A stretch of 64,000 bases of DNA, taken from assembly GCA_964635055.1 (NCBI GenBank), contig CAZWMT010000002.1:130550-194549 (forward strand), given 5' to 3'. This DNA is from an uncultured Microthrixaceae bacterium. GTDB taxonomy: Bacteria; Actinomycetota; Acidimicrobiia; Acidimicrobiales; DATDAH01. A model generated the notes under the pieces. That model saw only the letters and a list, made by a program, of their open reading frames with translations. It was not told the DNA's origin and did not search any database. The translations under genes and the position numbers were made by a program. Of the stretch, positions 12,775-29,705 are shown piece by piece. Position 1 is the stretch's first letter. The number at the start of each line of letters is the position of its first letter.

Positions 12775-12898
12775 GGGCCCCCGGCGGAGGGCCGGTGAGC
12801 GTCCTTGGGCCGTGATACCCCCCCTTCACCATGCCGATACCACCTGCTCGCGACGGTGGTCACCGTCCAGTCGGTTCGAAGGGGAGGCAGGAGTCGCT

Positions 12899-14989
12899 GT
12901 GGGGGACGTCTCGCAAGTCCGCATCATGCTGTTGGGGCCGTGCCGCTTGGAGATCGGTGGGGCAGAGGTGGCGATGCCCGCTCGCAAGGAGCGGATGGCG
13001 CTGGCCACGCTGGCCCTCAGGCCCGGTCGCCCGCTCGGGGTCCACGAGCTCGCCGCCGTCCTCTGGGGTGAGCCGTTGCCGGACGCCGCCCGCAAGAGCG
13101 CGCAGGCCGTGGCCTCGCGCCTGCGCCGGCGACTGGCTGCCGCGGCCCCCGGCATCGAAGCCAGGTTCGCCACCCACGACGATGGCTACACCCTCCGCGT
13201 GGAGCCCGCCGACGTCGACGCCTTCTGCTTCGAACGACTGGTCGACGACGCCGACCGAGCCCTCCACGAGGGCAACGCCGAACAGGCGCTCAGCCTGCTC
13301 GGTGAGGCCACGGCCCTGTGGCGGGGTGACCCGGTCCCCGAGCTCGCCGACGCGGCCCTCGGCCAGATCGAGGCGGCCCGCCTCACGGGGCTCCGGGTCC
13401 GTGCCCTCGAGCTGTGGAACGACGCCGAGCTCACCGTCGGGCGGAACGACCCTGTCGTCGGTCGCGCCGAGGGACTGCTGGCCGAGGAGCCGTTCCGCGA
13501 GAACCTGTGGGCGCAGCTGATGCTCGCGCTCTACCGCTCCGGCCGTCAGGCCGAGGCGCTCCGTGCCTATCAGCGAGCCCGTGCCGCACTGGTCGATCAG
13601 CTCGGCATCGAGCCTGGGCCCGAGCTGCGCCGGCTCGAGGCCGCCATCGTGACCCAGGCACGCGAGCTCGACCTCAGGACGCTCGAGCCCTCGGCCCCGG
13701 GACCCGCTCCGCGGGGCACTCCCCCGCCGCCCGCCAGCCGGCGCGATGCCGGCGTGCCGGACTGGGTGACCCGTTCGTGCGTCGGCCCGTTCGTGGACCG
13801 CCAGGTCGAGATCGCCCGCATCGAGTCGGCGTTCGACGCCGCTGCGTCCGGTCTGCGGGTCGTGGGGGTGTCGGGCGAGGACGGCATCGGCAAGTCGCGC
13901 CTCGTCGCCGAGGCCGCTCGCCGCTTCGCCGAAGCCGGCGCGCTCGTCCTCGGCGGGCAGTGCCACACCGACCGGTCGTCGCTGGCCCCCTTCCGCCACC
14001 TGCTCGACCGCTACGCCGCCCAGGTGCCGAGCTCTGCCGACGATTGGACGACCGGCACCGCCGCCACCTTCGGTGCGCTGAGCGCCGTCATGGCCGAGCA
14101 ACTCGGCGGCACCTGCCAGCCCGACCTCGACGACCCGTACACCGCGGCGTCCGGTGTCATGTCGCTGGTCCGCTCCGCCGGTCATCGCCGGCCCACGGTC
14201 CTCGTCCTCGATGACCTGCACCTCGCCGACCCGTCGACCATCGAGGCCGTGCGCCAGCTGGTGGACGGACACCCCAACGTGTCGATGCTCGTCGTTCTCG
14301 TGTTCCGCGGCGCGGACGCACGGTTGCGGCCGGAGCTGCTCGATCTCCTCGACGACCTGCACCGACTACAGGGCTACGAACGCATCCCGCTGGGCCCGCT
14401 GCCGAGCGACGACGGTGCGGCGCTCCTCGCCGAGCTGCTCGGGGGCCCGGTAGGAGCCCACTGGGAGCGGGCGTTCGTGACCCTGAACGAGGAGGTGGGC
14501 GGGAAGCCCCGCTACCTGCTGGCCCTCGCTCGCGCCGTCGCCGATCGCCGCGGGGTGGAGGCGGACGACTGGGTGCCGGCGGGCATCGCCGAGCTGGGTC
14601 TGCCCCGGAGCCTCCATGACCTGATCCGGCGCAACCTACGGGCACTACCGGTGGCGTACCGCGCCGTGCTGGACGCGGCCGCGGTGGTCGACAGCCCGTT
14701 CGGTGTCGGCCTGGTCGCCGATCTGGCCGGCTGCAGCACCGACACCGTCCTGGCGGCGCTCGATTGGCTGCGGGTGGCGGGCTTGGTCGTCCAGTCGGAT
14801 CTCGGCACCGCCGCGTTCAGCTGTGAGGCGGTCCGCCGGGCGGTCCGGGACGACCTTGTGCCGGCGCACCTCCTGCGTCTCCGCGCGCGGCGCTCGGATC
14901 CTCGCACGACCGGCGAGGGCGGCGAGGCCGGCGAAGGCGGCGAGGGCACCCGACCCCTCCACCGCGAGCTCTTCTCGACCCCGACCTGA
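12899..14989 (+). CDS. AfsR/SARP-family regulator (winged helix + BTAD + P-loop NTPase), copy 2
   Basis: VRIMLLGPCRLEIGG..LWGEPLP. BTAD is WRGDPVPEL..RENLWAQLMLALYRSGRQAEALRAYQRARAALVDQLGIEPG. Walker A is GEDGIGKSRLVAEAA. GTG 12899 is preceded by GGGGAGGCAGGAG. Confidence 0.88.
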   Translation: MGDVSQVRIMLLGPCRLEIGGAEVAMPARKERMALATLALRPGRPLGVHELAAVLWGEPLPDAARKSAQAVASRLRRRLAAAAPGIEARFATHDDGYTLRVEPADVDAFCFERLVDDADRALHEGNAEQALSLLGEATALWRGDPVPELADAALGQIEAARLTGLRVRALELWNDAELTVGRNDPVVGRAEGLLAEEPFRENLWAQLMLALYRSGRQAEALRAYQRARAALVDQLGIEPGPELRRLEAAIVTQARELDLRTLEPSAPGPAPRGTPPPPASRRDAGVPDWVTRSCVGPFVDRQVEIARIESAFDAAASGLRVVGVSGEDGIGKSRLVAEAARRFAEAGALVLGGQCHTDRSSLAPFRHLLDRYAAQVPSSADDWTTGTAATFGALSAVMAEQLGGTCQPDLDDPYTAASGVMSLVRSAGHRRPTVLVLDDLHLADPSTIEAVRQLVDGHPNVSMLVVLVFRGADARLRPELLDLLDDLHRLQGYERIPLGPLPSDDGAALLAELLGGPVGAHWERAFVTLNEEVGGKPRYLLALARAVADRRGVEADDWVPAGIAELGLPRSLHDLIRRNLRALPVAYRAVLDAAAVVDSPFGVGLVADLAGCSTDTVLAALDWLRVAGLVVQSDLGTAAFSCEAVRRAVRDDLVPAHLLRLRARRSDPRTTGEGGEAGEGGEGTRPLHRELFSTPT

Positions 14990-15002: not shown

Positions 15003-16247
15003 TCAGGGAGGGGCGGCCACGAACAGTGCGACGTGGTCGCCCTGCTTGGCCTGGCTCTCGGCCGTGGGTGACTGGCTGTAGACGGTGCCTGGCGGCCGGT
15101 TGGTCCCCCCGGCGGCGGTCACGTCCACGATGAGGCCCAGGTCGGACAGGATGGCCTCCGCCTCCGCGACCGGCCGGTCGAGGACGCTCGGCACGATGAC
15201 GTCGTCGCCTCCCAGGCTGACCAGGAGCGTGACCTTGTCGCCCGCGTGCAACTCGGTACCGGGCGTGGGGGTCTGCCGGATCACCTGGCCCCTCGTGACC
15301 TCGGCGTTCACCTGGTTCTCGAAACGGGGATGCAGTCCCGCCGCTTCGACGCGGGCGGCGGCGAGTTGCTCGTTCACGCCGGTCACGTCGGGCACGCGGG
15401 CCGGTGCCGGGTCGTCTGGGCGCAAGCCCAGCCGACCGGCCATGAAGAACGCGAAGGTGAGCACCGCGCCGAGGCAGAGGACCCCCAGCAGCAGCTTCCC
15501 GATGAGGGGCAGCGAGGCGATGACCCCCGGCCGATCGCCCACGGGGTCGGCGGGGCCGGTAGCGGTGGCCGGCCGGTGGCCGTTGAGGAGCAGGTCGAGG
15601 TCGGCCTGGGCCCCGGCCGCCGACCCGTAGCCACCCTCGGAGCCCGCGGCGGTCAGCCGGGCGAGCGCGGCGCCGAGTCCGTCGGGCGCCGGCCGATCCC
15701 CGAGCGCCGACGAGATCACCGCGGCCAATGCGTGCAGATCGTCCAGCGGGGCCGGTCCCTCCTCGATGCCGTCCGGTCCGTCGAGGGCGTAGACCCGCCC
15801 GAAGCCGGTCACGATGACGCGTCCATCGTCGTTGAGGAGCACGACCTCGGCGGTCAGGCCCCCGTGGACGACACCGGCCCGGTGGGCGGCGACGAGGACG
15901 TCGGCGACGTCGAGGGCGACCTCGATCACCCGGCGGTCGTCGAGTGACGTCGCGGCCAGGGGTTGGCCGAGGGGCGCCTCGCTGGCGACGTAGTAGCTGC
16001 CTCGTTCGATGCCGGCGCCGAGGACACGACCCACGTTGCCGTGGTCGAGGGCGGCCAACGAGCGCATCGCCCGCTCGAAGCGTTCGCGGGCCCTTGGCGA
16101 CAGGTCACAGGCCTCGGGCCGGAAGACCTCGAGCACGACCTCGGCGTCGGTCGTCAGGTCGGTGGCCCGGAAGATCCATCCCGCATCGCTGACGGCGACC
16201 TGCTCGGCAGGCAGGAACCGCCCGCCGTACTCGACCCGGAGCGCCAC
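15003..16247 (-). CDS. PASTA-domain membrane protein with degenerate (pseudo)kinase domain
   Basis: Kinase-like fold but no GxGxxG. VVLEVF replaces VAIK, HGGLTAEV replaces HRDLKPxN, and GFG replaces DFG. One TM (LLGVLCLGAVLTFAFFMAG) is followed by two PASTA repeats (VPDVTGVNEQLAAARVEAAGL.. and VIVPSVLDRPVAEAEAILSDLGL..). Confidence 0.8.
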   Translation of the reverse strand: MALRVEYGGRFLPAEQVAVSDAGWIFRATDLTTDAEVVLEVFRPEACDLSPRARERFERAMRSLAALDHGNVGRVLGAGIERGSYYVASEAPLGQPLAATSLDDRRVIEVALDVADVLVAAHRAGVVHGGLTAEVVLLNDDGRVIVTGFGRVYALDGPDGIEEGPAPLDDLHALAAVISSALGDRPAPDGLGAALARLTAAGSEGGYGSAAGAQADLDLLLNGHRPATATGPADPVGDRPGVIASLPLIGKLLLGVLCLGAVLTFAFFMAGRLGLRPDDPAPARVPDVTGVNEQLAAARVEAAGLHPRFENQVNAEVTRGQVIRQTPTPGTELHAGDKVTLLVSLGGDDVIVPSVLDRPVAEAEAILSDLGLIVDVTAAGGTNRPPGTVYSQSPTAESQAKQGDHVALFVAAPP

Positions 16248-16330
16248 CCGGCGATCCTACGGCGGTGGGGCTCCCGGTGGCGGTGCGGCTCGTGGTGCCG
16301 ACCCCTGTGCGGCACCACCGGGCCCCGCGC

Positions 16331-16879
16331 TCAGTGCTCCGAGGTGGCCCGCATCCCGCTGGATGCGCCGAATGGGCGCGCTGGGCGGTCGGGCACCTGC
16401 TCGTAGGTGCCGAACACCAGGTCCCAGAGGGGGCTGGTCACGCCGAAGTTGGTGGTGCCGGACGAGGCGTGGTGCTGCAGGTGGCGGCGCTGCTGCCAGC
16501 GGGCGTAGCGGGTGCGGGCGGGACGGAAGTGGGCGCGGAAGTGCACCCGCTCGTAGACCAGGTAGGTGGCGATGCCCGACAGGCCCACCAGCGCACCGGT
16601 GAACCAGGGCGCGCCGACCGCGGTGGCCAGCCAGGCGCCGACCGGGCACAGCACCCCCAGCCCCACCACGAGGGTCATCATCAGCGACAGCGGCGAGGCG
16701 AGCGGCCGGCGGGTGGGGTGGCGGTGGTGGTCGAGGTGACCGCGCGAGGCGATGGCCGGTCCGAGCTCGGCGTGCATGAACCAGCGGTGGATCACGTACT
16801 CGGTGAAGCTCCAGGCCCCTATGCCCGCCAGCACGGCCGCCAGCGCCACGGCCACGCCCGCCACGAAACTGTCGCTCAC
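16331..16879 (-). CDS. Fatty acid hydroxylase / sterol desaturase superfamily membrane protein
   Basis: His boxes HRWFMH, HLDHHRH, HFRAHF, HLQHH. Only the 3' third of ORF 16331..17593 is coding. GTG 16879 has CATACT 7 nt upstream. Confidence 0.7.
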   Translation of the reverse strand: MSDSFVAGVAVALAAVLAGIGAWSFTEYVIHRWFMHAELGPAIASRGHLDHHRHPTRRPLASPLSLMMTLVVGLGVLCPVGAWLATAVGAPWFTGALVGLSGIATYLVYERVHFRAHFRPARTRYARWQQRRHLQHHASSGTTNFGVTSPLWDLVFGTYEQVPDRPARPFGASSGMRATSEH

Positions 16880-16885
16880 AACGGG

Positions 16886-16892
16886 CAGTATG
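16886..16892. promoter_or_regulatory. Overlapping face-to-face -10 boxes for two divergent leaderless genes
   Basis: CAGTAT (16886-16891, + strand) lies 6 nt before GTG 16898. CATACT (complement of 16887-16892) lies 7 nt before GTG 16879. Confidence 0.35.
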
Positions 16893-16897
16893 GCCGG

Positions 16898-17569
16898 GTG
16901 CGACGCCGCCGCGCCCCCCGACCCGCCACGCCGGTGGTCCACGCCGTACCCCGGGCTCGGCCGGCGCCGCCACCCGCGGCCGGTGCACGGCTGGTCGTCG
17001 GGGTCCTTCTGGCCGTCCTGGTCCTCACCGGCCTCCTGGGCGCCTGCTCGGGTGACGACGGCGGCGCCGCCGACCCGGCCACGCCCACGAGCACGCCCGG
17101 CACCACCGGCGCCACGTCGCCCGGCAGTGGCGGCGGCGCCGAGGCGCCCGGTGAGCCGTGTGCCGACCTGCACCCCATCGGGGCCTTCGGCGAGGTCGAG
17201 GTGGCCATCGGCGACGACCCGGAGTGCCTGCTCCTGGCCCAGACCGTGGAGGAGCGGGCCCGGGGCCTGATGCAGGTCACCGACCTGGCCGGCTATCCCG
17301 GCATGCTGTTCGTGTTCCCCGACGACTCGACGGGTGGCTTCTGGATGCGCAACACGCCGATGCCCCTGTCGATCGCCTACCTCGACGCCGACGGCGCCAT
17401 CGTGTCGACCGCCGACATGGATCCGTGCGACGACGTGCCCAGCTGCCCTTCGTACCCCGCCGGGGGTGCCTACCGGTTCACCGTCGAGGTGCCCCAGGGC
17501 CGCCTCGACGACCTGGGCCTCACCGGCGACGCCCGCCTCACCGTCGTCAGCCCCGTCGAGCCCAGCTGA
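16898..17569 (+). CDS. DUF192-domain lipoprotein
   Basis: Lipobox LTGLLGAC. DUF192 core is RARGLMQVTDLAGYPGMLFVFPDDSTGGFWMRNTPMPLSIAYLDADG. Only the 3' half of ORF 16265..17569 is coding. Start is uncertain (GTG 16898 or GTG 16934). Confidence 0.72.
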   Translation: MRRRRAPRPATPVVHAVPRARPAPPPAAGARLVVGVLLAVLVLTGLLGACSGDDGGAADPATPTSTPGTTGATSPGSGGGAEAPGEPCADLHPIGAFGEVEVAIGDDPECLLLAQTVEERARGLMQVTDLAGYPGMLFVFPDDSTGGFWMRNTPMPLSIAYLDADGAIVSTADMDPCDDVPSCPSYPAGGAYRFTVEVPQGRLDDLGLTGDARLTVVSPVEPS

Positions 17570-17620
17570 GCGGGTTGCCACCGTCGACAGCACAGCGCGC
17601 GATGGGCGCTCGACCAGCCG

Positions 17621-20600
17621 TCACGGCGAGCGGTCGCACGTGGAGCGGTACGCCAACCCGCCCAGGTACTGCTCCCACTCCGCCCGGGTGAGGTCACGCG
17701 CCACCAGAGAGCACGCGGCCTCGAGCCACCGGCCCGGGTCGAGGTCCCACACGGCGATCGTGCCGTCGAAGGCCGGGATGGCCACGGCGCGGCCGTCGGG
17801 GCTGAACGCCGGGCGGCTGCCCTGGTAGTGGGTGAGCTCGAAGGTCGAGAAGGTGAAGGGTGTCCGGCCGCCGATGAGCTCCTCGCCGATGGCGGCGCCG
17901 GTGTCGGCCTGCCACAGGCGGCTGCGGCTGAACCCGAGGGTCGTGGCGACCAACGTGGTGCCGTCGGGGCTGTAGGCCACGCCGCCGATCGGCCCGGCGT
18001 GGTCCTCGAGCGCCGGACCGACCGCCTCGTGGGTCGCCACCGACCACTGCTGTAGGACGCCGGCGGTCGTCCCGGTGGCGAGACGCCGGCCGTCGGGCGA
18101 GAAGGCAACGGCCAGGAACGGTGCGTCCACGCTCTCGAGCGGCTCGCCCTGCTCGGCGTGCTCGCCGTGGGCGTCCAGCAGGTGGACCAGGTTGTTCTCC
18201 GCGATGACCGCGATCGTGGCCCCGTCGGGGCTCCAGGCCACGCCCAGGGGGAAGCCGCCGCGCACCGGGATCTCCGTGGTCGCCGCGGCGCCGGGATCAG
18301 CGCGCGGGTCCCACAAGGTGACGTTCCCGGCGTTCTCGGTGACGTCATCGGTCGTGGCCCCCTGGCTGCTCACCGCGGCGGCGAGCCGCCCGGAGACCGG
18401 ATCGAAGGCCAGCTGGTAGACCCACGCGTCGCCGAGGTCGAGGCGAGCCTCGGGTGCACCGCTGGCGACCTCGACGAGCTGCACCGTTCCCGTGGTGCCG
18501 GCGACCGCGACCCGCTCACCGGTCGGGTCGACGGCCACGGTCAGGACCTCGCCCCCGATGTCGATGCGGCGCGTCGACCCGTCGGCCAGGTCCCGGATGA
18601 GCAGGCGCCCGTCCGCCCCGCTGCTGACGAGGAACCTCCCGTCGGGGGTGTAGGCCACTTCGGTGGCCGCCGCCCGGTGCCCGCCCACCTCGGCGGCGAT
18701 CACCCGCCGGCCATCGAGGCGCCAGATGGCGCCCCGTCGGTCGAGGCCGCCGGTGGCGAGGGCCCGCCCGTCGGCGCTGAAGGTGACGTCGTTGATCGCC
18801 GTGGAGGAGGCCGCTAGCGGGGGACCGAGCTCGAGACGCGAGGCGACGTCGAACAGCTGGGTGTGCCCGTCGGTGTTGCCCACGGCGAGCACGGTGCCAT
18901 CGGGACTGAACTCCGCGGTCGTCGGCCCCCCGTCCGGCAGCCGCATCGCCGGCTGTTCCTCGCCCGTCACCGGATCGACCAGGGCCACGCGGCTGTCCTC
19001 ACCGCCGACGGCCAGCGTCCCGTCGGGTGCGAACGCGAGGGCGGTGGGCAGGCCCACGTCCGGCTGGAGCCGGTCGCCGAGGGGCTGGCGGTCGTCGACC
19101 GTCCACACCGCCACATCACCGTCGGCGGTGAGGTGGGCGAGCCGCTCGCCGTCGGGGCTCACCGTGATGACCCGGTCACCGGGGTACACCGGGTCGAGCA
19201 CCCACGGCTCGCCCTCCGGCGTCCACGTGGACGTGTCCCAGATCACCGCATCCAGCGACGCCCCCTCGGCCGTGGGCGCACCGCCCTGGGTCACGAGGCG
19301 CCGGCCGTCGGCGCTGAAGAAGGCCGACGTGAGGGGGCCGACCGGCGCCGGGCTGGGGACGAGCCGGTCGAGCGTGCCCGTCCTCAGGTCCCAGACCTGC
19401 AGCCGCCCCTGGATGTCGTCCTCGAGCTCGACCACCGCCGGCACGGCCAGCCAGCGCCCGTCGGGGCTGACGGCGGCGCCGAGGGTGATGTCGTCCTCGT
19501 GATCCAGGACCGCGACCTGCTCCCGGGTGGCGGTGTCCCACACGATCGTGCCGGTGCCGTCGGAGGTCGGTGTGTACAGCCGGGTCGCGTCGGGCGAGAA
19601 CACCGCGGCCTCGAGGCCCGAGTCGTTCCCGTACAACAGCCCCGCGAGCAGGGGATGGGTCTCCAACGCGGTGAGCAGGGTGCTGCGGGTCTCCTCGTCG
19701 TCGTGGCGGCGGTAGGCCTCGGCGGCCAACAGCAGGCCGACGTCGGGCTGTCGCTCGGTGAGCGAGCGCGAGACCGCGGCGATGCGGGCCACCTCGGCCC
19801 GCGCTCGGGAGGTGTCGGCCTGGTGGGCCTGGACGACGGCCGCGGCGCCGGCGACCAGCGCGACCACCAGCGCCACCGCCGTCAGCGTGAGGCGACGCCG
19901 CAGCCGCCGGTTGGTCCGGACCTGGTGCTCGACGGACCGCTCCTCGATGGCCCGGCTCTCCTCGAGGAAGCGTTGCTCGAGGGTGGAGATGGGCGGCTCG
20001 GTCGTGGCCACCCACTCGAGCGCCGTCGCCAGGCGGGGGCCGCGGTAGAGCTCGCTGGGATCCTCGTCGAGCTGCGCCCATGCGGTGGCCGACGTGGTCA
20101 GGTGGCGTTGGATGCGGAGCCCGTCACGGTCCTCGTCCAGCCAGGACTGCAACCGCGGCCACTCGCGGATGAGCGCCTCGTGCGCCAGCTCGACGCCGGT
20201 GTCGTCCATGGTGACGAGCCGGGTGGCGACCGCCGTGTCGAGCACCGCCCGCACGCGGTCCTCGGCCCGATCGGCCGGGAGCAGCTCGGCCAATCGGGCC
20301 CGGCGTCGGGTGTCGGCAACCCCGTCGCCTGGCTCGACCAGGCGGACGAACAGGTGGCGGGCGAAGGCCTGGTCGGTGGGATCCAGGGCGTCGACCGCGC
20401 CGTCCGCGGTGGCCGCTATCGCGCCCTCGACCCCGCCGGTCGACCGGTAGCCCTCGAGGGTGAGGGTGCGGCCGTCGCGGACCTCCCAGGTCGAGCGCAG
20501 TGCGTGGGACAAGAGGGGGAGCGCGCCTGGCTCACCCGCGATCTTGGCGACCAGGACGTCCACGAGCCCCGGCTCGATGCGAAGGCCGGAGCAACGGGCG

Positions 20601-22414
20601 GGCTCGACGATGGCCCGACGGAGCTCGGCCTCGGTCATCGGCCCCAAGAGGACCTGGTGCTGGGCGACGGCGGCGGCGAGGCCCACGTGGTGGGCGCAGG
20701 CCCCGTAGAAGTCGGCACGGAGCCCGATCACGACCGGCTCGGGCCAGGCCAGCAACCGGTCGAGGAACGTGGTGCGGGCGACGTCGTCGTCGCAGAGGGT
20801 GAACAGCTCCTCGAACTGGTCGACGACCAGCGTTGCCGGCTCGCCGGCGTCGGCGGCGCCGGCCGCATCCATGGCGGTGACGGGCTGCGAGCCGGGCGTG
20901 ATCACCCGAGCGGCCGCGAGGCGGGGAGCGACCCCGGCGCGGAGCACCGACGACTTGCCGCTGCCCGACGCGCCGACCACGGCGAGGAACCGGTGCTGCG
21001 CCAGGCGGTCGACGATCTCGTCGACCACGTGCTCTCGTCCGAAGAAGCGCTCGGTGTCGTCCGCGCCGAACGACAGCAGCCCCGGGTAGGGGCAGGGCCC
21101 GAGCGGTGGGGGCGTGTGCACCCCCGGCGCGGCCAGGGCGAAGATCTCCTCGGGCTCGCGGAGGCCGCGCAGCTTGTGGGGGCCGAGCGGCACCAGGTCC
21201 ACGCCGTCGGGGAGGTGCTCGGCGACGAGGCCGGCCGTCACGTTGGACAGGATGACCTCGCCGGCCTCGCCCTGACCGCGGAGGCGGGCGGCCATGTTGA
21301 GGGTGGCGCCGACGTAGTCCTCGCGCCGTCGGTCGGTCTGGCCGGTGTGCACGCCGACCCGGACCTCGAGGGGCAGGGCGCCGGGCCACTCCGTGGTCGA
21401 GAGATCGTTCACGACGTCGACGGCGGCGCGCACCGCCGCGAGGGGCGACGGGTACATCGTCACCGTGGAGTCGCCCTCGCCCTGCGCCTCGAGGAACCGC
21501 CCGCCGTGACGCTCGGCGGCGGCACCGATGACGTCGTCGTGGACGGCCAGTGAGCGGGCCATGTCGCCGGGCCGTGACTCCCACTTCGCCGTCGAGCCCA
21601 CGATGTCGGTGAGGCAGAAGGTCAGGACACCGGTGGGCAAGGAGTCGTGCCACCCGGCGCGTAGGCGCTCGACCAGCTCGCCGGCGGTCTCCGGGCGCTT
21701 GTCCGGGTCGGTGCTCAGCCCCCCGCGGATGGCGGTCTCGAGTTGTTCGGCCTGCTCGGGGTCGATGCCCTCCCAGGACGGTCGGACGCCACTCGGGGGC
21801 TCACCCGTCAACAGCGCGAAGGCCGTGGCGGCCAACGAGTACACGTCGCTGGCGGTCGTCGGTTCGCCGGTGGACACGAGCTCCGGCGCGGCGAAGCCAC
21901 GGGTGCCCATCCGGCGCCGGAGCGAGGTGCGTGACGACGACAGCCCGAAGTCCACCAGCACGACCCGACCGGCGTCGGTCAACACCAGGTTGGCGGGCTT
22001 CACGTCCCCGTGGACCACCGGCGGGTGTTGGCCGTGCAGGTGGGTGAGCGCGGTCGCGGCGTCGGCCAGCCAGGGCAGCACCTGGGACGGCCCCAGCCCC
22101 GGACGGCCCCGGGCGTGGAGCAGGCGGTCGAGGTCGGTGCCCTCCACCCAGTCCATCGCGATGACGTACTTGTCGCCGTCGAAGAAGTCGTCCCGCACCA
22201 GGGGCACGTGCGGGTTGGGTGGGATGGCGAGCAGCACGCGGGCCTCGGCCAGCAGCGCCTCGCTCTCGGGCTCGGAGCTGACCGAGCGGATCTTCAGGGC
22301 GACGAAGCGGTCGTGCTGGTGGTCGAGGGCCTTGACCACGCGACCCTCGCCGCCCTCGCCGAGCACCTCCAGCAGCTCGTACCGGCCGCGCATCAGCTCC
22401 GTCACGGCGGTCAT
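17621..22414 (-). CDS. Multidomain signalling protein: Ser/Thr kinase + class III nucleotidyl cyclase + STAND P-loop NTPase + TM helix + ~700-aa WD40/beta-propeller region (1597 aa)
   Basis: Kinase: GEGGEGRVV, VALKIR, HGDVKPANL, DFGLS (aa 10-255). Cyclase: FCLTDIVGST, GEGDSTVTMY, GVHTG, GATLNMAARL (aa ~263-395). NTPase: FFGRE..AVVGASGSGKSS and LVVDQFEELF (aa ~455-700). TM: LTLTAVALVVALVAGAAAVV (aa 842-861). These are followed by many SPDG/DG..LA repeats. Confidence 0.92.
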   Translation of the reverse strand: MTAVTELMRGRYELLEVLGEGGEGRVVKALDHQHDRFVALKIRSVSSEPESEALLAEARVLLAIPPNPHVPLVRDDFFDGDKYVIAMDWVEGTDLDRLLHARGRPGLGPSQVLPWLADAATALTHLHGQHPPVVHGDVKPANLVLTDAGRVVLVDFGLSSSRTSLRRRMGTRGFAAPELVSTGEPTTASDVYSLAATAFALLTGEPPSGVRPSWEGIDPEQAEQLETAIRGGLSTDPDKRPETAGELVERLRAGWHDSLPTGVLTFCLTDIVGSTAKWESRPGDMARSLAVHDDVIGAAAERHGGRFLEAQGEGDSTVTMYPSPLAAVRAAVDVVNDLSTTEWPGALPLEVRVGVHTGQTDRRREDYVGATLNMAARLRGQGEAGEVILSNVTAGLVAEHLPDGVDLVPLGPHKLRGLREPEEIFALAAPGVHTPPPLGPCPYPGLLSFGADDTERFFGREHVVDEIVDRLAQHRFLAVVGASGSGKSSVLRAGVAPRLAAARVITPGSQPVTAMDAAGAADAGEPATLVVDQFEELFTLCDDDVARTTFLDRLLAWPEPVVIGLRADFYGACAHHVGLAAAVAQHQVLLGPMTEAELRRAIVEPARCSGLRIEPGLVDVLVAKIAGEPGALPLLSHALRSTWEVRDGRTLTLEGYRSTGGVEGAIAATADGAVDALDPTDQAFARHLFVRLVEPGDGVADTRRRARLAELLPADRAEDRVRAVLDTAVATRLVTMDDTGVELAHEALIREWPRLQSWLDEDRDGLRIQRHLTTSATAWAQLDEDPSELYRGPRLATALEWVATTEPPISTLEQRFLEESRAIEERSVEHQVRTNRRLRRRLTLTAVALVVALVAGAAAVVQAHQADTSRARAEVARIAAVSRSLTERQPDVGLLLAAEAYRRHDDEETRSTLLTALETHPLLAGLLYGNDSGLEAAVFSPDATRLYTPTSDGTGTIVWDTATREQVAVLDHEDDITLGAAVSPDGRWLAVPAVVELEDDIQGRLQVWDLRTGTLDRLVPSPAPVGPLTSAFFSADGRRLVTQGGAPTAEGASLDAVIWDTSTWTPEGEPWVLDPVYPGDRVITVSPDGERLAHLTADGDVAVWTVDDRQPLGDRLQPDVGLPTALAFAPDGTLAVGGEDSRVALVDPVTGEEQPAMRLPDGGPTTAEFSPDGTVLAVGNTDGHTQLFDVASRLELGPPLAASSTAINDVTFSADGRALATGGLDRRGAIWRLDGRRVIAAEVGGHRAAATEVAYTPDGRFLVSSGADGRLLIRDLADGSTRRIDIGGEVLTVAVDPTGERVAVAGTTGTVQLVEVASGAPEARLDLGDAWVYQLAFDPVSGRLAAAVSSQGATTDDVTENAGNVTLWDPRADPGAAATTEIPVRGGFPLGVAWSPDGATIAVIAENNLVHLLDAHGEHAEQGEPLESVDAPFLAVAFSPDGRRLATGTTAGVLQQWSVATHEAVGPALEDHAGPIGGVAYSPDGTTLVATTLGFSRSRLWQADTGAAIGEELIGGRTPFTFSTFELTHYQGSRPAFSPDGRAVAIPAFDGTIAVWDLDPGRWLEAACSLVARDLTRAEWEQYLGGLAYRSTCDRSP

Positions 22415-22434
22415 CGACGTCCTACGCTGGCGCG

Positions 22435-23037
22435 GTGGTTGCCGCAGTCGAGGTGTGGTCGGTCGGAGGGCGCCGCCAGGTCGACCTGTCCGACGACCGG
22501 GTCACCGTGGGCAAGGGTGACGAGAACGACATCGTCCTCGACGGTGACCCCACCGTCAGCCGCCTGCACGCCGTGCTCGAGCAGTTTCCGGCGGGGTGGT
22601 GCGTGAACGACCTGGGCTCGTCGAACGGCACCTTCTTGAACGGTGAGCGCATCTGGGCGCCGCAGCGACTGCGCCACGGCGACGAGGTGAGGGTCGGGCG
22701 CACCCGCCTGCTGTTCCGCAACTCGTCCGACGTCGGCCGCACCGTGACGGCCTCCGAGGACGAGCCTCCGGCCCTGACCCCTCGCGAGCACGATGTGCTG
22801 GCGGTGCTGTGCCGTCCCCTGCTCGACCGGGACCTCTTCACCGAGCCCTCGTCGATCCGGGAGATCGCCGCCGACCTGGTGGTCAGTGAGGCCGCCATCA
22901 AGGCGCACCTGGCCAACCTCTACCTCAAGTTCGGCGTCGAGGAGGGGGTGTCCAGCCGGCGGTCCCGCCTCGCCAACGAGGCGCTCCGCCGGGGGGCCGT
23001 GACGCTCGCCGACCTGCGCCGCGGCCGCGAGCAGTAG
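22435..23037 (+). CDS. FHA domain + LuxR-type HTH transcriptional regulator
   Basis: FHA: VTVGKGDENDIVLDGDPTVSRLHAVLE..NDLGSSNGTFLNGERI. LuxR HTH: LTPREHDVLAVL..IREIAADLVVSEAAIKAHLANLYLKFGV. GTG 22435 has TACGCT (22423-22428) 6 nt upstream, consistent with a leaderless start. Confidence 0.88.
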   Translation: MVAAVEVWSVGGRRQVDLSDDRVTVGKGDENDIVLDGDPTVSRLHAVLEQFPAGWCVNDLGSSNGTFLNGERIWAPQRLRHGDEVRVGRTRLLFRNSSDVGRTVTASEDEPPALTPREHDVLAVLCRPLLDRDLFTEPSSIREIAADLVVSEAAIKAHLANLYLKFGVEEGVSSRRSRLANEALRRGAVTLADLRRGREQ

Positions 23038-23053: not shown

Positions 23054-23986
23054 TCAGGCACCGCAGACCTGCTCCTCGTAGGCGGCGACCCGGGCGAACT
23101 GGTCACGGATGGCGTCGGCGGTGAGCTGCAGGTCCGCCCGCTCCTCGGGTGTCCCCTCCCGGATGACGCCGACGAAGTCGTACCCGTGCGCCGCGAGCAC
23201 GTCGCGCTGCTCGCCCGCGGTCCAGGCCGCCACTGCGGCGACGTCGTCCTGGATGGACGCCGGCGCGGCGTCGACCTGCGCCGGCCCGCCCTCGACCAGC
23301 TCCGCGACGAGTGCTTCGACGTCGGCGGGATCGGCGCCGCCGCCCATCACCTCGCCGATCCGCTCCTGCTCAGCGGCCACCGCGTCACAGTACGCCCCGG
23401 CCTCCTCGCCTTCGAAGGAGACGTTCGCCGGCCGCGGTTGCTGGGCGCCGCAGACGTCGCCCTCGTACGTGAGGATGCGGTCCTGGGCCGCCTCGACGTC
23501 GGGCGGTGCCTCGAGGGCGGCCAGCTCCTCGGGGGTCCCGTTCTCCTGGAGGGCGACGACGTCGTAGTCGTAGCGCTCGAGCACCGGGTTGATGGTCTCG
23601 TTCTCCGCGTCGACCTTGCGCTGCCAGTCCTCGGCCAGCTCGTCCGGCGCGGTCTCGAGCGCGGTCTGCTCGAAGGCCAGGAACTCGTTCCAGTAGGCCT
23701 CGAACGCCGCCGGGTCGGTCTCGTCCACGGGCTGGGTCACCTCGTGGATGGCCCATTCCCGGGCCGCGTCGCAGTAGGCGCTCTCGGCAGGGTCGTCGGC
23801 CGGCTCCGTCGCCGGGGCGGTCGTGGTGGCGGCCCCGTCGTCACCGGCGCCGCTGCTGGTGCAGGCCCCCGCCATGAGGCCGAGCGCGAGCGCGAGCGCG
23901 AGCGCGGCCGGGCGGGTTCGGCCCTGTCGTTCGGTTCGTGTGGGCGTGGTTCGTGTGGGCGTGGTTCGCGTGAGCAGGGTTCGCAT
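23054..23986 (-). CDS. Acidic lipoprotein with two tandem ~120-aa Cys-bracketed domains, function unknown
   Basis: MRTLLTRTTPTRTTPTRTE..LALALGLMAGAC (lipobox). Both halves start with YCDA and end with Y-E-x-x-VCGA, and share (Y/HGY)DxVxxxxxGTPEE. Only the 3' part of ORF 23054..24433 is coding. Confidence 0.7.
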   Translation of the reverse strand: MRTLLTRTTPTRTTPTRTERQGRTRPAALALALALGLMAGACTSSGAGDDGAATTTAPATEPADDPAESAYCDAAREWAIHEVTQPVDETDPAAFEAYWNEFLAFEQTALETAPDELAEDWQRKVDAENETINPVLERYDYDVVALQENGTPEELAALEAPPDVEAAQDRILTYEGDVCGAQQPRPANVSFEGEEAGAYCDAVAAEQERIGEVMGGGADPADVEALVAELVEGGPAQVDAAPASIQDDVAAVAAWTAGEQRDVLAAHGYDFVGVIREGTPEERADLQLTADAIRDQFARVAAYEEQVCGA

Positions 23987-24218
23987 GCCGGTGAGTGTCC
24001 GGCGGCGGGCGGGACCATGCCATGGCCTCGGAAGGCATGCGCACCCTCCTCCGAGGGAAGGTCGATCTGCCCCTCGGGCAAGGGTGCGGTGCGGGCCGGC
24101 GCCGCCGCGTCGCTGGAAACCGGGGGTATCCGGCGACGCTCGGAAGGTGGTGCAACACTGTCCGTGAGGGCGGTTCCACCACAGTTGGGCGCGAGCGACG
24201 GACAGGAGGACCACACCT

Positions 24219-25955
24219 GTGGCCAATGGTGAGGAGCTGCTCCGCCCCGGCGTCGGCCCCCTGCAGGACACCGTCGCTCCCGCCGGCGAGCCCGACGCGG
24301 GTGGGCACGACCTGACCGATCGCGGCCGCACGGAGGCCAAGTTCCAGGGCCTCCTCGACGCCGCCCCCGACGCGATCGTCGCGGTCGACGCCGACGGCCT
24401 GATCCAACTCATCAACCGGCAGGCCGAAGCCATGTTCGGCTACCGCCGTGAGCACCTGGTGGGCCAGTCGCTCGAGCTCCTCATCCCCGAGCGGGTGCGG
24501 TCGCAGCACCCTGCCCACCGTGACGGGTACTTCGCACACCCCGTCACCCGCCCGATGGGCGCGGGCCTCGAGCTGTCGGCCCGGCGGAGCGACGGCACGG
24601 AGTTCCCGGTGGACATCTCGCTCTCGTCGCTCGACACCGAGGACGGTCGGTTGGTCACCGCCGCGGTGCGCGACATCACCGACCGCAAGCGCAGCGAGGC
24701 CGAGCAGGCCGCGTTGGAGGCCCGGCTCCGCAAGGCCGAGGTCGACGAGGCCCGCGCCCACCTCGAGGCCCAGCTGCAGCAGTCGCAACGGCTCGAGAGC
24801 ATCGGGCAGCTCGCGGGCGGCGTCGCCCACGACTTCAACAACCTGCTCGCGGGGATCATGAACTACGCCGAGCTGGTGGCTGCGGGCCTCTCGTCGGCGC
24901 TGCAGCGGCCGGCGGCCGATCCCGAGCTGTCCACGGTGATGGCCGACGCGCTCGAGATCGTGAAGGTGGCCCGGCGGGCGGCCGAGCTGGTCCGTCAACT
25001 GTTGATCTTCTCGCGCCGTGAGGTGTCCCAGCCGGTGGTGCTCGACCTGAACTCGGTGGTGGTCGAGATGGAGCGGTTGCTGGCCCGCACCATCGGTGAG
25101 GACGTCGACCTGCAGACGTCGCTCCGCGACGACCTGGCCCACACGCGGATCGACAAGGGTCAGCTCGAACAGGTGCTGATGAACCTGGTCGTGAACGCCC
25201 GCGACGCCATGCCCGACGGCGGCCGCCTCACCCTGACCACCTCCGACTTCCACGCCGACGAGAGCTACGCGCAGGCGCACGGCATCGTGGCCGGCCGCTA
25301 CGTGCGGCTCACCGTGTCGGACACGGGCGTCGGGATGGCCCCCGACGTGGTGGAGCGGGCCTTCGAGCCCTTCTTCTCCACCAAGCCCAAGGATCGTGGC
25401 TCGGGCCTCGGCCTGGCCACGGTGTACGGCATCGTCACCCAGGCCGGAGGCGACGTCACGATCTACTCCGAGCAGGGCCTGGGCACCACGGTCCGCGTGA
25501 ACCTCCCTGCCACCACCGACGACGCCAGCACCGGTGCCGGTGACGTGGGCGACCCCCGATCGGGACGGGGCGAGACGGTCCTGCTGGTCGAGGACGAGGA
25601 GATGGTGCGCGAGCCGGCGCGGCGGTTGCTCAGCCAGCGGGGCTACAGCGTGCTCGCGGCTGGCGATGCCGAGCAGGCCCTTCGTCTGGTCGCGGCGCAC
25701 CACGGACCCATCGACCTACTGCTCACCGACGTGGTGATGCCGGGACGCTCCGGCAAGGAGCTGGCCGAGCAGGTGTGCGAGGACCGCCCGGGGTGCCGGG
25801 TGATCTTCATGAGCGGCTACAGCCAGGACGTGATCGCCCACCAGGGGGTCCTGGAGCCCGGCGTGACGTTGCTCGAGAAGCCCTTCGCGGCCGATGCCCT
25901 GCTGGGCGCGGTGCGCGACAGCCTTGATCCAGCGAGGGAGGTCCGCGATGGCTGA
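24219..25955 (+). CDS. Hybrid sensor histidine kinase (PAS + HisKA + HATPase_c + C-terminal receiver)
   Basis: PAS: FQGLLDAAPDAIVAVDADGLIQLINRQAEAMFGY. H-box: GQLAGGVAHDFNNLL. ATPase: NLVVNARDAM, DTGVGM, GSGLGLATV. REC: VLLVEDEEMVRE..LLLTDVVMPG. SD GGAGG lies 9 nt before GTG 24219. Confidence 0.92.
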   Translation: MANGEELLRPGVGPLQDTVAPAGEPDAGGHDLTDRGRTEAKFQGLLDAAPDAIVAVDADGLIQLINRQAEAMFGYRREHLVGQSLELLIPERVRSQHPAHRDGYFAHPVTRPMGAGLELSARRSDGTEFPVDISLSSLDTEDGRLVTAAVRDITDRKRSEAEQAALEARLRKAEVDEARAHLEAQLQQSQRLESIGQLAGGVAHDFNNLLAGIMNYAELVAAGLSSALQRPAADPELSTVMADALEIVKVARRAAELVRQLLIFSRREVSQPVVLDLNSVVVEMERLLARTIGEDVDLQTSLRDDLAHTRIDKGQLEQVLMNLVVNARDAMPDGGRLTLTTSDFHADESYAQAHGIVAGRYVRLTVSDTGVGMAPDVVERAFEPFFSTKPKDRGSGLGLATVYGIVTQAGGDVTIYSEQGLGTTVRVNLPATTDDASTGAGDVGDPRSGRGETVLLVEDEEMVREPARRLLSQRGYSVLAAGDAEQALRLVAAHHGPIDLLLTDVVMPGRSGKELAEQVCEDRPGCRVIFMSGYSQDVIAHQGVLEPGVTLLEKPFAADALLGAVRDSLDPAREVRDG

Positions 25956-29527: not shown

Positions 29528-29705
29528 GGAGGAGAGTCTTGCGGAACCAGGGCGGCTGGGGGTCGGGGCCCGGTGGTCGGTCAGGGGCGGTCCGGGCACG
29601 GGAGAGAGTGTGCTGCGCCCGGTCGCCGAAGGGGGCGCGCCCCCCGCCGGCCGGGCCTCCCGAGCGGCGCGCTCCGGACGGGGCCGTCAGCGGTGACGGT
29701 GGTGG

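Follow-up and report, generated by a model that had tools for sequence, protein, structure and literature searches.

The minus-strand gene at 17621..22414 of the window (the whole 64,000-nucleotide stretch analyzed here) encodes, in one uninterrupted open reading frame (ORF) of 1,597 amino acids (aa), a kinase, a cyclase, an nSTAND1 NTPase, a transmembrane (TM) helix, and tandem WD40 propellers. We give about an even chance to the reading that this protein is a single-pass, N-in/C-out receptor-type STAND protein, which, together with an FHA-LuxR transcription factor encoded next to it, makes up a two-gene module.

A continuous gene representing a widespread family

The ORF ends with a stop codon at 17621-17623, and its third-position GC content (GC3, 0.94) is typical for real genes in a window of 74% GC. 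Sequence comparison revealed that homologs share the domain layout of the 1,597-aa protein, and the same single-ORF fusion is present in independent assemblies, thereby excluding an assembly artifact. A preliminary description of this DNA had allowed for a frameshift or assembly error joining separate genes; we ruled out such an artifact, as the ORF is continuous, its GC3 is uniform, and the layout is common to 70 independent full-length homologs. The four modules and catalytic motifs described there are real: the Pkinase, Guanylate_cyc, nSTAND1, and WD40 domain models all matched, and the motifs lie where they had been placed, apart from Walker A, the end of which had been set 3 nucleotides (nt) short (20974..20948 being its full extent). 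AlphaFold2 (AF2) modeling was confident, with a pLDDT of 86.9 for residues 1-880 and a pLDDT of 90.2 (pTM 0.85) for residues 831-1597. An exact-sequence lookup of the 1,597-aa protein retrieved no record.

The kinase-cyclase-nSTAND1 core was present in at least 108 of the 120 best database clusters, which derive from Acidimicrobiia and Thermoleophilia metagenomes and include no characterized member. In the literature on kinase, cyclase, and WD40 combined with STAND, on nSTAND1, or on STAND-TM-WD40 proteins of Streptomyces, we found no description of this architecture. Thus, the earlier impression of an uncharacterized combination holds insofar as no describing paper was found; the combination is not rare, however, but the standard form of a large family. 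Homologs that appeared "kinase-less" or "short" were dropped as natural variants, because tblastn located the missing kinase or WD40 parts adjacently in another frame; loci L006-L008 are frameshifted long-read assemblies. In sister nSTAND1-TM-WD40 proteins (compared, together with their neighbors, as a small sample rather than a formal census), the N-termini are HTH_31, OmpR-wHTH plus BTAD, or cyclase plus AAA_16, and not toxins; judged by sequence, these N-termini are regulatory outputs. The nSTAND1-TM-WD40 chassis as a whole is much larger, occurring in Streptomyces, other Actinomycetota, and Chloroflexota.

Kinase and nSTAND1 modules

A Hanks-type Ser/Thr protein kinase occupies aa 12-255 (21650..22381, minus strand; Pfam Pkinase E = 1.5e-31). 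All sequence hallmarks of such kinases are in place, i.e., the Gly-rich loop (GEGGEG, aa 19-24), the VAIK Lys (K41 in VALK, aa 38-41), the alphaC Glu (E57), the catalytic loop (HGD, aa 135-137, with D137, K139, and N142), DFG (aa 155-157), and APE (aa 176-178). Likewise, GxGGEG, K41, E57, HGDxKPxN, DFG, and APE are near-invariant in the 120 homologs. The top Foldseek matches of the kinase were Mycobacterium tuberculosis PknA and PknI and Staphylococcus aureus PknB, with TMt values of 0.76-0.79 to PknA and PknI. On these sequence grounds, the protein carries a Hanks-type Ser/Thr kinase with intact motifs, for which phosphotransfer is predicted. Its non-RD character (HGD), already noticed in the preliminary description, was confirmed and holds throughout the family; in plants and animals, pattern-recognition receptors typically have kinases of the non-RD type.

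The nSTAND1 NTPase spans aa 442-786 (20057..21091, minus strand) and matches Pfam PF20703 at profile positions 1-378 of 379 (E = 2e-118). This full-length match, together with a Walker A (GASGSGKSS, aa 481-489) of the form GxxGxGKS and a Walker B (LVVDQFEE, aa 529-536) of the form DQxEE, assigns the module to the nSTAND1 clade; it also has a conserved R566 and PLLSHAL (His637) in the winged-helix part. Residues G481, S483, G484, G486, K487, S489, D532, Q533, E535, and E536 are invariant in the family NTPase. Sequence searches against the PDB found no solved homolog of the STAND part, and Foldseek with the whole N-terminal-half model returned only kinases and is therefore uninformative on the STAND fold. 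The order of kinase plus cyclase, nSTAND1, and WD40 follows the tripartite STAND syntax, yet a TM helix lies between the nucleotide-binding module (NOD) and the sensor. One STAND switch may gate kinase and cyclase together.

A conserved FHA-LuxR partner gene and the question of defense

A divergent gene (22435..23037, plus strand), starting 20 bp upstream of the kinase-cyclase-STAND gene on the opposite strand, encodes a 200-aa protein with an FHA domain (Pfam FHA 1.7e-20) and a LuxR/GerE-type helix-turn-helix (HTH; GerE 2.2e-6). The preliminary description, which saw no support from the neighborhood, had missed this gene, orthologs of which (50-85% identity) adjoin the homolog in 13 of 15 other loci in divergent, co-directional, or downstream arrangement; none was found within the flanks examined in L004 and L015. 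The FHA-LuxR partner is absent beside nSTAND1 proteins with other N-termini. No other neighbor (phosphatase or cNMP receptor) is consistent across homolog loci, the flanking genes otherwise being housekeeping genes that vary between loci. The conserved adjacency of the FHA-LuxR gene points to transcriptional signaling.

PDB matches placed the partner FHA closest to the mycobacterial STPK partners Rv1747, GarA, OdhI, and EmbR. Its SxxH and NG are conserved, whereas the Arg of GR, which normally contacts phosphothreonine, is replaced by Lys in the window protein and by S/Q/T in its orthologs; the partner may therefore bind phosphothreonine in an atypical way. The HTH, a LuxR/GerE type by score (27.6 bits versus a cutoff of 23.5, with only 29 residues matched), gave weak PDB matches to ChrA and GerE and shows strong conservation among orthologs. 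The ortholog alignment also revealed an invariant Thr105 in the linker between FHA and HTH. The 20-bp divergent intergenic region (22415..22434) contains TACGCT (22423-22428, plus strand), a -10-like TAnnnT hexamer located 6 nt before the GTG of the partner; TAnnnT recurs in L001, L002, L006, and L011, where its distance to the start codon is 6-7 nt. Scanning the divergent region for sigma-70 consensus promoters and terminators revealed nothing.

An immunity role, which the preliminary description had raised as possible, is the most serious competitor to the receptor-type module, although we consider it unlikely. According to this explanation, the propellers would recognize an invader (phage component, epibiont, or predator) at the surface, the STAND module would oligomerize, and kinase and cyclase would trigger arrest, death, or a defense program, much as an NLR-like conflict sensor does. 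The non-RD kinase type fits this idea, as do matches of the kinase to PADLOC defense-kinase models (mad6 3e-43, PD-T4-6, MkoA) and the faster divergence of the sensor half (21-57% identity, versus 47-75% in the signaling half). Moreover, nSTAND1 was defined in predicted counter-invader systems, with kinase and FHA among the associated domains (PMC8195603), and an Esr surface WD40 sensor, STPK, and FHA output protect Actinomycetota against epibionts (PMC13622651).

However, the PADLOC kinase matches reflect generic kinase homology: whole-protein matches were confined to the kinase domain, aa 440-1597 gave only P-loop-level matches (mad8 2e-4, mad3 1e-3), and the FHA-LuxR partner gave none. Neither the window nor any of eight annotated homolog loci harbors defense or mobile genes; the neighbors are signaling and housekeeping genes, the flanking housekeeping genes differing between loci, and the conserved partner is a transcription factor. 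The sister clades carry DNA-binding N-termini and not nucleases, proteases, or TIR domains, and an external sensor would be blind to intracellular phage proteins, unlike Avs or bNACHT. A DNA-level tandem-repeat scan revealed nothing relevant and no hypervariability signature, indicating that the WD40 repeats are old and diverged. In addition, a STAND census counted 391 of 589 clades as not defense-associated (PMC13581612). Thus, we found neither a match to Avs1-5 or bNACHT models nor, in this small sample of loci and sister clades, the defense-island context or toxic effector of antiphage STANDs, and the proposed antiphage Avs/NLR role is unsupported by PADLOC, by gene context, and by sister-clade effector types.

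A class III cyclase with an atypical specificity pair

The class III nucleotidyl cyclase lies at aa 262-428 (21131..21631, minus strand). Its isolated segment scored 33.5 bits with Pfam Guanylate_cyc (cutoff, 21.9 bits), and the family profile matched Ma1120 (1e-28), GRESAG4 (3e-24), and LipJ (6e-18) in the PDB. The motifs are LTDIVGST (aa 268-275), GEGDST (aa 312-317), GVHTG (aa 354-358), and LNMAARL (aa 372-378). We fixed the residue register by profile alignment to Ma1120 and GRESAG4; a register from single-sequence alignments, in which Gln311 would correspond to the Lys and Glu313 would bind metal, was dropped, since the family profile aligns K309 and D315 with a 2-residue insertion. The metal Asp D270 and D315, the second substrate Asp D366, and the transition-state N373 and R377 are kept; the fold score and these residues are those of a class III cyclase. 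The claim that both metal Asp are present therefore stands, but the cyclase is not fully canonical, as Glu309 sits at the adenine-specifying Lys position, where the family consensus is Lys. More specifically, Glu309 with the retained Asp366 departs from the Lys-Asp pair of ATP-specific adenylyl cyclases (AC) and also differs from the canonical guanylyl cyclase (GC) pair (Glu-Cys/Gly/Ser). It corresponds to the genotype of Ma1120 K101E, in which AC kcat fell 20-fold and GC activity rose (PMC4215837). With the adenine-specifying Lys replaced by Glu, the cyclase product is uncertain.

These departures bear on a less probable explanation, which we rate as a long way behind the two-output receptor, namely that the cyclase is a non-catalytic dimerization domain or nucleotide-binding pseudo-cyclase and that only the branch from kinase to FHA-LuxR signals. 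The hexad is DEDDNR in the window protein, the substrate Lys being Glu there and in its two closest homologs, and canonical DKDDNR, although the commonest class, accounts for just 35 of 120 homologs. In one subclade (P0082 to P0116), the second metal Asp, the substrate Asp, and the Asn have been lost, whereas kinase, STAND module, and FHA-LuxR neighbor (L005) persist. A cNMP receptor linked to the module is missing among the consistent neighbors in homolog loci, and inactive cyclase domains are a common feature of related conflict systems (PMC7159879). As the canonical Lys is absent, catalytic positions vary, and they are lost in a subclade, the second output may be weak or absent. Conversely, the window protein keeps all five catalytic residues listed above, the equivalent mutant of its closest solved homolog, Ma1120, is still active with shifted specificity, and the domain is kept at ~50% identity in most of the family. 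Given the degenerate cyclase in part of the family, the two signaling outputs proposed in the preliminary description are plausible but unproven.

A single TM helix and the location of the propellers

The TM helix at aa 843-861 (19832..19888, minus strand; Kyte-Doolittle 2.49) is the sole hydrophobic segment of the protein. The hydrophobic helix reported earlier is thus real, and it is conserved in nearly all homologs: we found it in ~84 of 88 related loci, including the wider nSTAND1 chassis, and a charge-free stretch of 19-22 residues keeps its position in at least 83 loci. The helix is preceded by a conserved RxNRRLR motif and lies within one long predicted helix (aa 811-879) that runs continuously through the membrane in the AF2 model. 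Tandem WD40 beta-propellers follow at aa 923-1557 (17744..19648, minus strand; Pfam WD40 E = 1.8e-30, plus beta-propeller models) as a putative extracytoplasmic sensor. The ~56 strands modeled in residues 831-1597 imply ~14 blades, probably 2 x 7, and the repeats close into propellers (AF2 pLDDT 90) with tandem seven-bladed Foldseek matches, the listed matches being the 2ymu tandem propeller, Utp/Pwp2, Apaf-1, and Aip1. At the C-terminus, a helical cap (17624..17743, minus strand; motif ACxxAGRxLTxxEWxxYLPxxxYxxxC) carries a Cys pair (C1568 and C1593) common to family members with intact ends and to Streptomyces-type nSTAND1-TM-WD40 proteins.

Sequence statistics favor a type II (N-in/C-out) topology. 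The net charge of the TM flanks is +4.25 on the N-side versus +0.82 on the C-side, and the N-flank is the more positive one in 79 of 83 loci. The number of Cys residues after the TM helix is even in 30/34 proteins (p = 3e-6) and in 58/70 (p = 1e-8), whereas the cytoplasmic STAND part has no even-Cys bias (19/34). Together with the conservation of the helix, the charge asymmetry and even Cys counts favor the extracytoplasmic propeller suggested in the preliminary description, with the propellers probably outside the cell and the protein probably N-in/C-out and single-pass. That the protein is instead a cytoplasmic Apaf-1-like STAND, whose helix is a membrane tether or oligomerization element and whose propellers sense an intracellular ligand under classical autoinhibition, is highly improbable: although all structural neighbors of the propellers found by Foldseek are intracellular proteins (Apaf-1, Utp, Aip1) and classical STANDs require sensor or arm contacts with the nucleotide-binding domain (NBD) (PMC4381067), such a charge-free stretch across these loci is a TM segment of standard type and not long enough to form a hairpin, the charges on its two flanks differ strongly, the C-terminal side alone carries the conserved Cys pair and the even-Cys bias, and a single-pass helix must put the two halves of the protein in different compartments.

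Comparison with known systems

M. tuberculosis PknD combines an intracellular kinase with an extracellular propeller and is activated by dimerization (PMC1847690). Like PknD, the window protein would have its kinase N-terminally in the cytoplasm, followed by one TM helix and, at the C-terminus, an extracellular beta-propeller sensor, and, like PknH with EmbR, it has an FHA-containing regulator as partner, the EmbR FHA being among the best PDB matches of that partner. In contrast to PknD, PknB, and PknH, its kinase is non-RD and is separated from the membrane by a cyclase and a 345-aa STAND NTPase; its propeller is a WD40 tandem rather than the NHL propeller of PknD, and its partner has a LuxR-type HTH rather than the SARP domain of EmbR.

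M. tuberculosis PknK is a kinase with a MalT-like STAND, and Rv0386/Rv1358/Rv2488c consist of class III cyclase, STAND, TPR, and LuxR HTH; kinase-STAND and cyclase-STAND fusions thus exist separately, whereas the window protein combines both in one chain. As in MalT, AfsR, and GutR, a P-loop NOD switch would couple a repeat sensor to signaling or transcription, with LuxR-type HTH output, and not to a toxin. Those proteins are soluble, with sensor and arm touching the NBD (PMC4381067), whereas here the sensor is probably across the membrane, the NTPase belongs to the nSTAND1 clade, and the HTH resides on a separate FHA protein. The nSTAND1 conflict systems (Kaur, Iyer, Burroughs, and Aravind 2021, eLife; PMC8195603) share the clade, a variable N-terminus, a central NTPase, a C-terminal sensor, and association with kinase and FHA; they feature FGS/lectin sensors, EADs, DGRs, and toxic effectors, whereas the window family has a TM helix, WD40, and regulatory outputs, with no EADs and no defense context.

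The Esr pathway of Actinomycetales comprises a surface WD40 propeller, a MoxR/vWA NTPase, an STPK, FHA Thr phosphorylation, and transcription (Wang et al., bioRxiv 2026, PMC13622651). The window module would follow the same logic of surface propeller sensor, NTPase, Ser/Thr kinase, FHA output, and transcription; however, Esr is multi-gene, its sensor being secreted and filamentous and its NTPase a MoxR AAA+/vWA pair, whereas the window module has one membrane protein plus FHA output, a STAND NTPase, and an additional cyclase. Myxococcus xanthus Pkn2, with Glu at its first cyclase specificity position (PMC1262709), and receptor guanylyl cyclases are likewise single-pass proteins in which a kinase (or kinase-homology) domain precedes a class III cyclase-like domain, but both lack a STAND NTPase and a WD40 ectodomain, and receptor guanylyl cyclases have the opposite orientation (N-terminal ectodomain) and an inactive kinase domain. 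Apaf-1, chains of which are among the Foldseek matches, shares the succession of STAND NTPase and tandem WD40 propellers; in contrast, it is a soluble protein with a CARD adaptor rather than enzymes as output, and cytochrome c is clamped by its propellers, which also contact the NOD.

Proposed mechanism and implications

According to current understanding, STAND/NLR proteins act as switches inside the cell, the NTPase being kept shut by direct contact with the sensor, and we know of no mechanism by which a STAND NTPase could be activated from the other side of a membrane. With the membrane between sensor and NTPase, classical sensor-NBD or arm contacts cannot carry the signal. In the receptor-type module, the external double propeller would bind a ligand at the cell surface, and the signal would travel along the continuous helix (aa 811-879) and/or via ligand-driven clustering, permitting ADP/ATP exchange and oligomerization of the nSTAND1 module. 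Oligomerization would bring the N-terminal kinase and cyclase together; as class III cyclases strictly require dimerization for activity and Hanks kinases such as PknD are activated by it, both are natural proximity-activated outputs. The kinase would then phosphorylate Thr on itself and/or on the partner (Thr105 being a candidate), the FHA would read the phosphothreonine, and the LuxR-type HTH would alter transcription, while the cyclase would add a diffusible cNMP signal of uncertain identity. The module may serve to sense a cue from outside the cell or from its envelope, possibly a biotic threat borne on the surface.

We further propose, only tentatively and with less confidence than the module itself, that this family and the nSTAND1-TM-WD40 chassis are the first outside-in STAND/NLR-like NTPases, with an extracellular tandem propeller, a single membrane helix, ATP-dependent NOD oligomerization, and no autoinhibitory sensor-NOD contact, this member releasing a cNMP (possibly not cAMP, given the Lys-to-Glu replacement) along with FHA-LuxR-read Thr phosphorylation. 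A sensor across the membrane in a large conserved family would need a different coupling mechanism and would extend NLR-like signaling to extracellular cues. The module offers a compact test system, consisting of one gene plus a small partner, with measurable ATPase, kinase, and cyclase activities and a predicted transcriptional readout. The window protein also represents a naturally occurring Glu-Asp form of the specificity pair of cyclases, and its FHA-LuxR partner, at Thr105, is a specific candidate substrate for bacterial Ser/Thr kinases of an orphan class. Finally, hundreds of related proteins with HTH or SARP outputs in Streptomyces and its relatives could be reread as membrane-tethered one-component regulators.

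The megaprotein gene encodes four modules in one frame

The megaprotein is encoded by an uninterrupted open reading frame of 1597 aa (17621..22414, minus strand), whose codon-position GC content (0.76/0.53/0.94, in a window of ~74% GC) indicates that it is a true gene. All four domain families named in the preliminary description were matched by profile models: Pkinase at aa 12-209 (Pfam E = 1.5e-31), Guanylate_cyc at aa ~265-427 (33.5 bits versus a curated cut-off of 21.9, with that segment scanned alone), nSTAND1 (PF20703) at aa 442-786 (E = 2e-118, profile positions 1-378 of 379), and many WD40/propeller models from aa ~940 to 1500. We modeled the two halves with AlphaFold2 from family alignments, obtaining a mean pLDDT of 86.9 and pTM of 0.69 for residues 1-880, and 90.2 and 0.85, respectively, for residues 831-1597. 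The N-terminal model structurally matches mycobacterial and staphylococcal Hanks kinases. The C-terminal model has three helices, one long and two short, along with ~56 strands (14 blades) and a two-helix cap; WD40 propellers arranged in tandem with seven blades each (2ymu, Utp/Pwp2, Aip1, and Apaf-1) match its structure best. The open frame, the domain models and these confident structural models confirm the earlier description of a single four-module ORF, and all of its motifs lie where it placed them, save that the Walker A motif GASGSGKSS ends at 20948 rather than 20951. Judged by its sequence, the megaprotein belongs to four families: Pkinase, class III cyclase, nSTAND1, and WD40.

The architecture defines a large family

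The megaprotein is not a singular fusion. With aa 1-860 as query and 8000 candidates scored, at least 1157 proteins matched at E <= 1e-10, the closest among those scored being 75% identical; 108 of the 120 best clusters at 90% identity shared its kinase-cyclase-nSTAND1 order, and a further 11 had a degenerate middle domain. The named sources were MAGs of Solirubrobacterales, Conexibacter, Gaiellaceae, Acidimicrobiales, and "Actinomycetota," and in a scan of species-representative genomes, MAGs of this kind alone contained the kinase-cyclase-nSTAND1 triad, with identities no higher than 57%. The sensor half was 21-57% identical to the same homologs versus 47-75% for the signaling half; such faster sensor divergence suits any receptor family and discriminates between no readings.

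Apparently "kinase-less" or "short" homologs were rejected as real variants, being frameshifted gene calls with the missing parts encoded next door. On three ENA long-read metagenome contigs (L006, L007, and L008), frameshifts split the homolog into kinase and rest, or into rest and WD40, and such splits inflate the architectural diversity seen in protein databases.

Across the family, the kinase is near-invariant at the Gly loop, K41, E57, H135-G-D137-x-K139-P-x-N142, DFG, and APE, and the non-RD "HGD" is a trait of the whole kinase-cyclase-nSTAND1 family. Invariant in the nSTAND1 part are Walker A, the DQFEE Walker B, R566, and a PLLSHAL motif; we infer that R566 is the sensor-1 Arg and that PLLSHAL supplies the winged-helix His.

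A conserved FHA-LuxR gene accompanies the family

The preliminary description, which saw no support in the neighborhood for an immunity-type role, missed a conserved neighbor. On the opposite strand, 20 bp upstream of the megaprotein gene, lies a divergent gene (22435..23037, plus strand) for a 200-aa partner with an FHA domain (1.7e-20) and a LuxR/GerE-type HTH (27.6 bits versus a cut-off of 23.5). In 13 of 15 other loci, an ortholog (50-85% identity) adjoins the gene for the kinase-cyclase-nSTAND1 protein, and because its orientation differs among them (divergent in 8, co-directional just upstream in 4, downstream in 1), the link has survived rearrangement. At the loci examined, nSTAND1 proteins with different N-termini, or with only distantly related kinases, had no such partner alongside, and no other conserved neighbors were found in the homolog loci. 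The FHA domain of the partner most closely resembles those of four proteins that work with mycobacterial Hanks kinases: Rv1747, GarA, OdhI, and EmbR. SxxH, NG, the HTH, and Thr105 in the FHA-HTH linker are invariant in ten partner orthologs, and the position of the canonical GR arginine varies, being K, S, Q, or T.

A TAnnnT hexamer occurs 6-7 nt before the partner start codon in the window (TACGCT, 22423-22428) and in four homolog loci (L001, L002, L006, and L011). Since neither a 5' UTR nor a Shine-Dalgarno sequence would fit in the start region (22415-22437), the position of this hexamer suggests that the partner mRNA is leaderless, with a promoter overlapping the start of the megaprotein gene. 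In L007, a small cNMP_binding-domain gene (12851-13276) lies ~3.7 kb downstream of the homolog; none was present in the other loci, and a consistent link to a cyclic-nucleotide receptor is thus absent.

The window is otherwise ordinary, signaling-gene-rich chromosome (PBPs, acyl-CoA carboxylase, and prephenate dehydratase). One of its housekeeping proteins, a carboxyltransferase, has its nearest matches in Microthrixaceae and Acidimicrobiales, which makes an Acidimicrobiia bacterium the probable source. At 24219-27777 (plus strand), the gene for a hybrid histidine kinase (PAS-HisKA-HATPase-REC) overlaps by ~60 nt the next gene, which encodes an unusual REC-HD_5-REC-GerE protein; the dense signaling neighborhood around them is not conserved in homolog loci. 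The window also holds a further Ser/Thr kinase (27788-29599, minus strand) and two SARP-type BTAD + AAA_16 regulators (5383-7341 and 12701-14989). Between the partner gene and the hybrid histidine kinase, a 459-aa ORF (23054-24433, minus strand; coding-like GC3 of 0.88) has no Pfam match, and its start overlaps the kinase ORF. Some 1.4 kb downstream of the megaprotein gene 3' end, a 414-aa ORF (15003-16247, minus strand) has two PASTA domains (3e-25) but matches a kinase only weakly and in part (E = 1.5e-4); it may represent either a PASTA pseudokinase or the remnant of a PknB-like gene. At 16257-17620, a long minus-strand ORF (16331..17593) overlaps a long plus-strand ORF (16265..17569). Each has a real domain at its C-terminus only (FA_hydroxylase and DUF192, respectively), and the frame of high third-position GC changes near 16900, the actual genes being a pair of shorter, convergent ones. 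Finally, a 1447-aa ORF (38300-42643, minus strand) matches its family (prephenate dehydratase) in its last ~180 residues only, and its N-terminal extension, which overlaps the plus-strand ORF 41463-42953, is probably a high-GC open-frame artifact.

Sister clades and the question of defense

The closest sister clades on the nSTAND1-TM-WD40 chassis carry N-termini of HTH_31 (XRE-type), of OmpR-type winged helix plus BTAD (SARP), or of cyclase plus a second NTPase (AAA_16). All of these are outputs of a regulatory kind, as opposed to nucleases, proteases, or TIR domains. Across loci L017-L088, such relatives are very widespread, combining nSTAND1, a TM helix, ~700 aa of WD40, and a Cys-pair cap with XRE-type HTH or SARP N-termini; they would be STAND proteins that bind DNA while tethered to the membrane, and the chassis appears uncharacterized. 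In L022 (Ilumatobacteraceae MAG) and L064 (Gaiellales MAG), the N-terminal ~470 aa before nSTAND1 consist of cyclase and an AAA_16/nSTAND3-like domain, giving what would be two tandem STAND-type NTPases per membrane protein.

The same machinery could instead sense threats or act in immunity, as the preliminary description had allowed: nSTAND1 received its name in work on putative counter-invader systems, whose sensors have lectin folds and which use effector-associated domains (PMC8195603). In a recent census, however, only 198 of 589 prokaryotic STAND clades are linked to defense (PMC13581612). The megaprotein system has neither those lectin-fold sensors nor those effector-associated domains, and the megaprotein fails tests for known antiphage STAND systems. 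PADLOC matches are confined to the kinase domain, reflecting generic homology to defense kinases, with nothing on the STAND/WD40 part or on the partner. Together with the regulatory sister outputs and a window free of mobile or defense genes, this makes a threat-sensing or immune role rather unlikely.

The cyclase domain is plausibly active

The cyclase register, ambiguous in single-sequence alignments, was settled by aligning a 24-sequence family profile to solved cyclases. The profile matches Ma1120 (1e-28), the closest solved relative, and GRESAG4 (3e-24), and it places the family K309 as the substrate-specifying Lys, followed by a 2-residue insertion and D315 as the second metal Asp. The six catalytic positions of the megaprotein are D270-E309-D315-D366-N373-R377, five of which are canonical, with Glu for Lys; its two closest homologs have the same set. 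Canonical DKDDNR is the largest class (35/120), and both specificity positions are highly variable. With E309 at the Lys position, the megaprotein lacks the Lys-Asp pair expected of an ATP-specific cyclase. In Ma1120, the K101E change alone makes turnover as an adenylyl cyclase 20-fold slower while making the enzyme a better guanylyl cyclase (PMC4215837); this behavior, and the five canonical residues alongside E309, suggest that the domain is plausibly active, with a product that may or may not be cAMP. One subclade lacks several catalytic residues; that the megaprotein's own cyclase is catalytically silent seems distinctly unlikely given the residues it retains.

The propellers are predicted to lie outside the membrane

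Residues 843-861 form the sole hydrophobic segment of the megaprotein (Kyte-Doolittle 2.49), preceded by a conserved RxNRRLR, and a TM helix occupies the equivalent place in essentially all homologs long enough to reach it. Among 88 related loci, which come from Streptomyces, Amycolatopsis, Lentzea, Nonomuraea, other Actinomycetota, and Chloroflexota, ~84 keep the order of nSTAND1, ~410 residues, one TM helix, and 600-750 residues. As the three enzymatic modules (kinase, cyclase, and NTPase) depend on nucleotides of the cytoplasm and the helix is single-pass, the propellers would lie outside.

Consistently, the 15-residue flanks of the helix carry a net charge of +4.25 on the N-side versus +0.82 on the C-side, the N-side being more positive in 79/83 loci. 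The sequence beyond the helix finishes in a cap, ACxxAGRxLTxxEWxxYLPxxxYxxxC, that carries a conserved Cys pair; in the megaprotein, these two (C1568 and C1593) are the only Cys among 736 post-helix residues. Post-TM Cys counts are even in 30/34 capped loci (p = 3e-6) and in 58/70 overall (p = 1e-8), whereas the cytoplasmic STAND part shows no parity bias (19/34); Daniels et al. are said to have found, in 2010, that exported proteins of Actinobacteria are biased to even Cys counts. The agreement of three independent signals (flank charge, Cys pair, and Cys parity) is good circumstantial evidence, though short of proof, for the external propellers that the preliminary description had called putative. 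Apaf-1 is a precedent for joining STAND and WD40; a cytoplasmic Apaf-1-like arrangement is extremely improbable beside these signals.

A proposed route from sensor to outputs

The reading we favor, with about an even chance of being correct, is an external-propeller receptor acting through STAND oligomerization on a kinase/FHA-LuxR branch and a cyclase. A ligand would be bound by the external tandem propeller. In classical STANDs (MalT), the sensor and "arm" touch the NBD, keeping the closed state (PMC4381067); here the membrane rules out sensor-NBD contact, so coupling would proceed via a continuous helix and/or ligand-driven clustering. In the AlphaFold2 model, an unbroken helix from aa 811 to 879 spans the membrane. 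The signal would then cause nucleotide exchange and nSTAND1 oligomerization, and both N-terminal enzymes are of kinds turned on by proximity. Class III cyclases build their active sites across the dimer interface. PknD-type kinases are activated allosterically by dimerization (PMC1847690). The kinase would make phosphothreonine sites, the best candidate being partner Thr105; the FHA domain would read the phosphothreonine, thereby altering the LuxR-type regulator, and the cyclase would add a diffusible signal (cAMP, cGMP, or other).

Precedents include the kinase-STAND fusion PknK and the cyclase-STAND-LuxR fusion Rv0386. PknH-EmbR, a precedent for an STPK-FHA transcription module, and the GarA/OdhI switch share the logic of the proposed kinase-FHA branch. 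PknD, a receptor STPK with an extracellular propeller, is a precedent for the sensor placement, as is Pkn2 for a kinase-cyclase-TM fusion (PMC1262709). In the recently reported Esr pathway, sensing by a WD40 protein at the cell surface results in an FHA output protein being phosphorylated on Thr and in a response at the level of transcription, a logic resembling the proposed megaprotein-partner signaling (PMC13622651). Our literature search found no account of a membrane lying between a STAND NTPase and its sensor, of a single STAND that carries both kinase and cyclase, or of a dedicated FHA-LuxR partner, in line with the earlier remark that this exact combination was not recognized as characterized. 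The megaprotein system, as yet uncharacterized, is real and conserved, is built from familiar modules, and is common in soil Actinomycetota.
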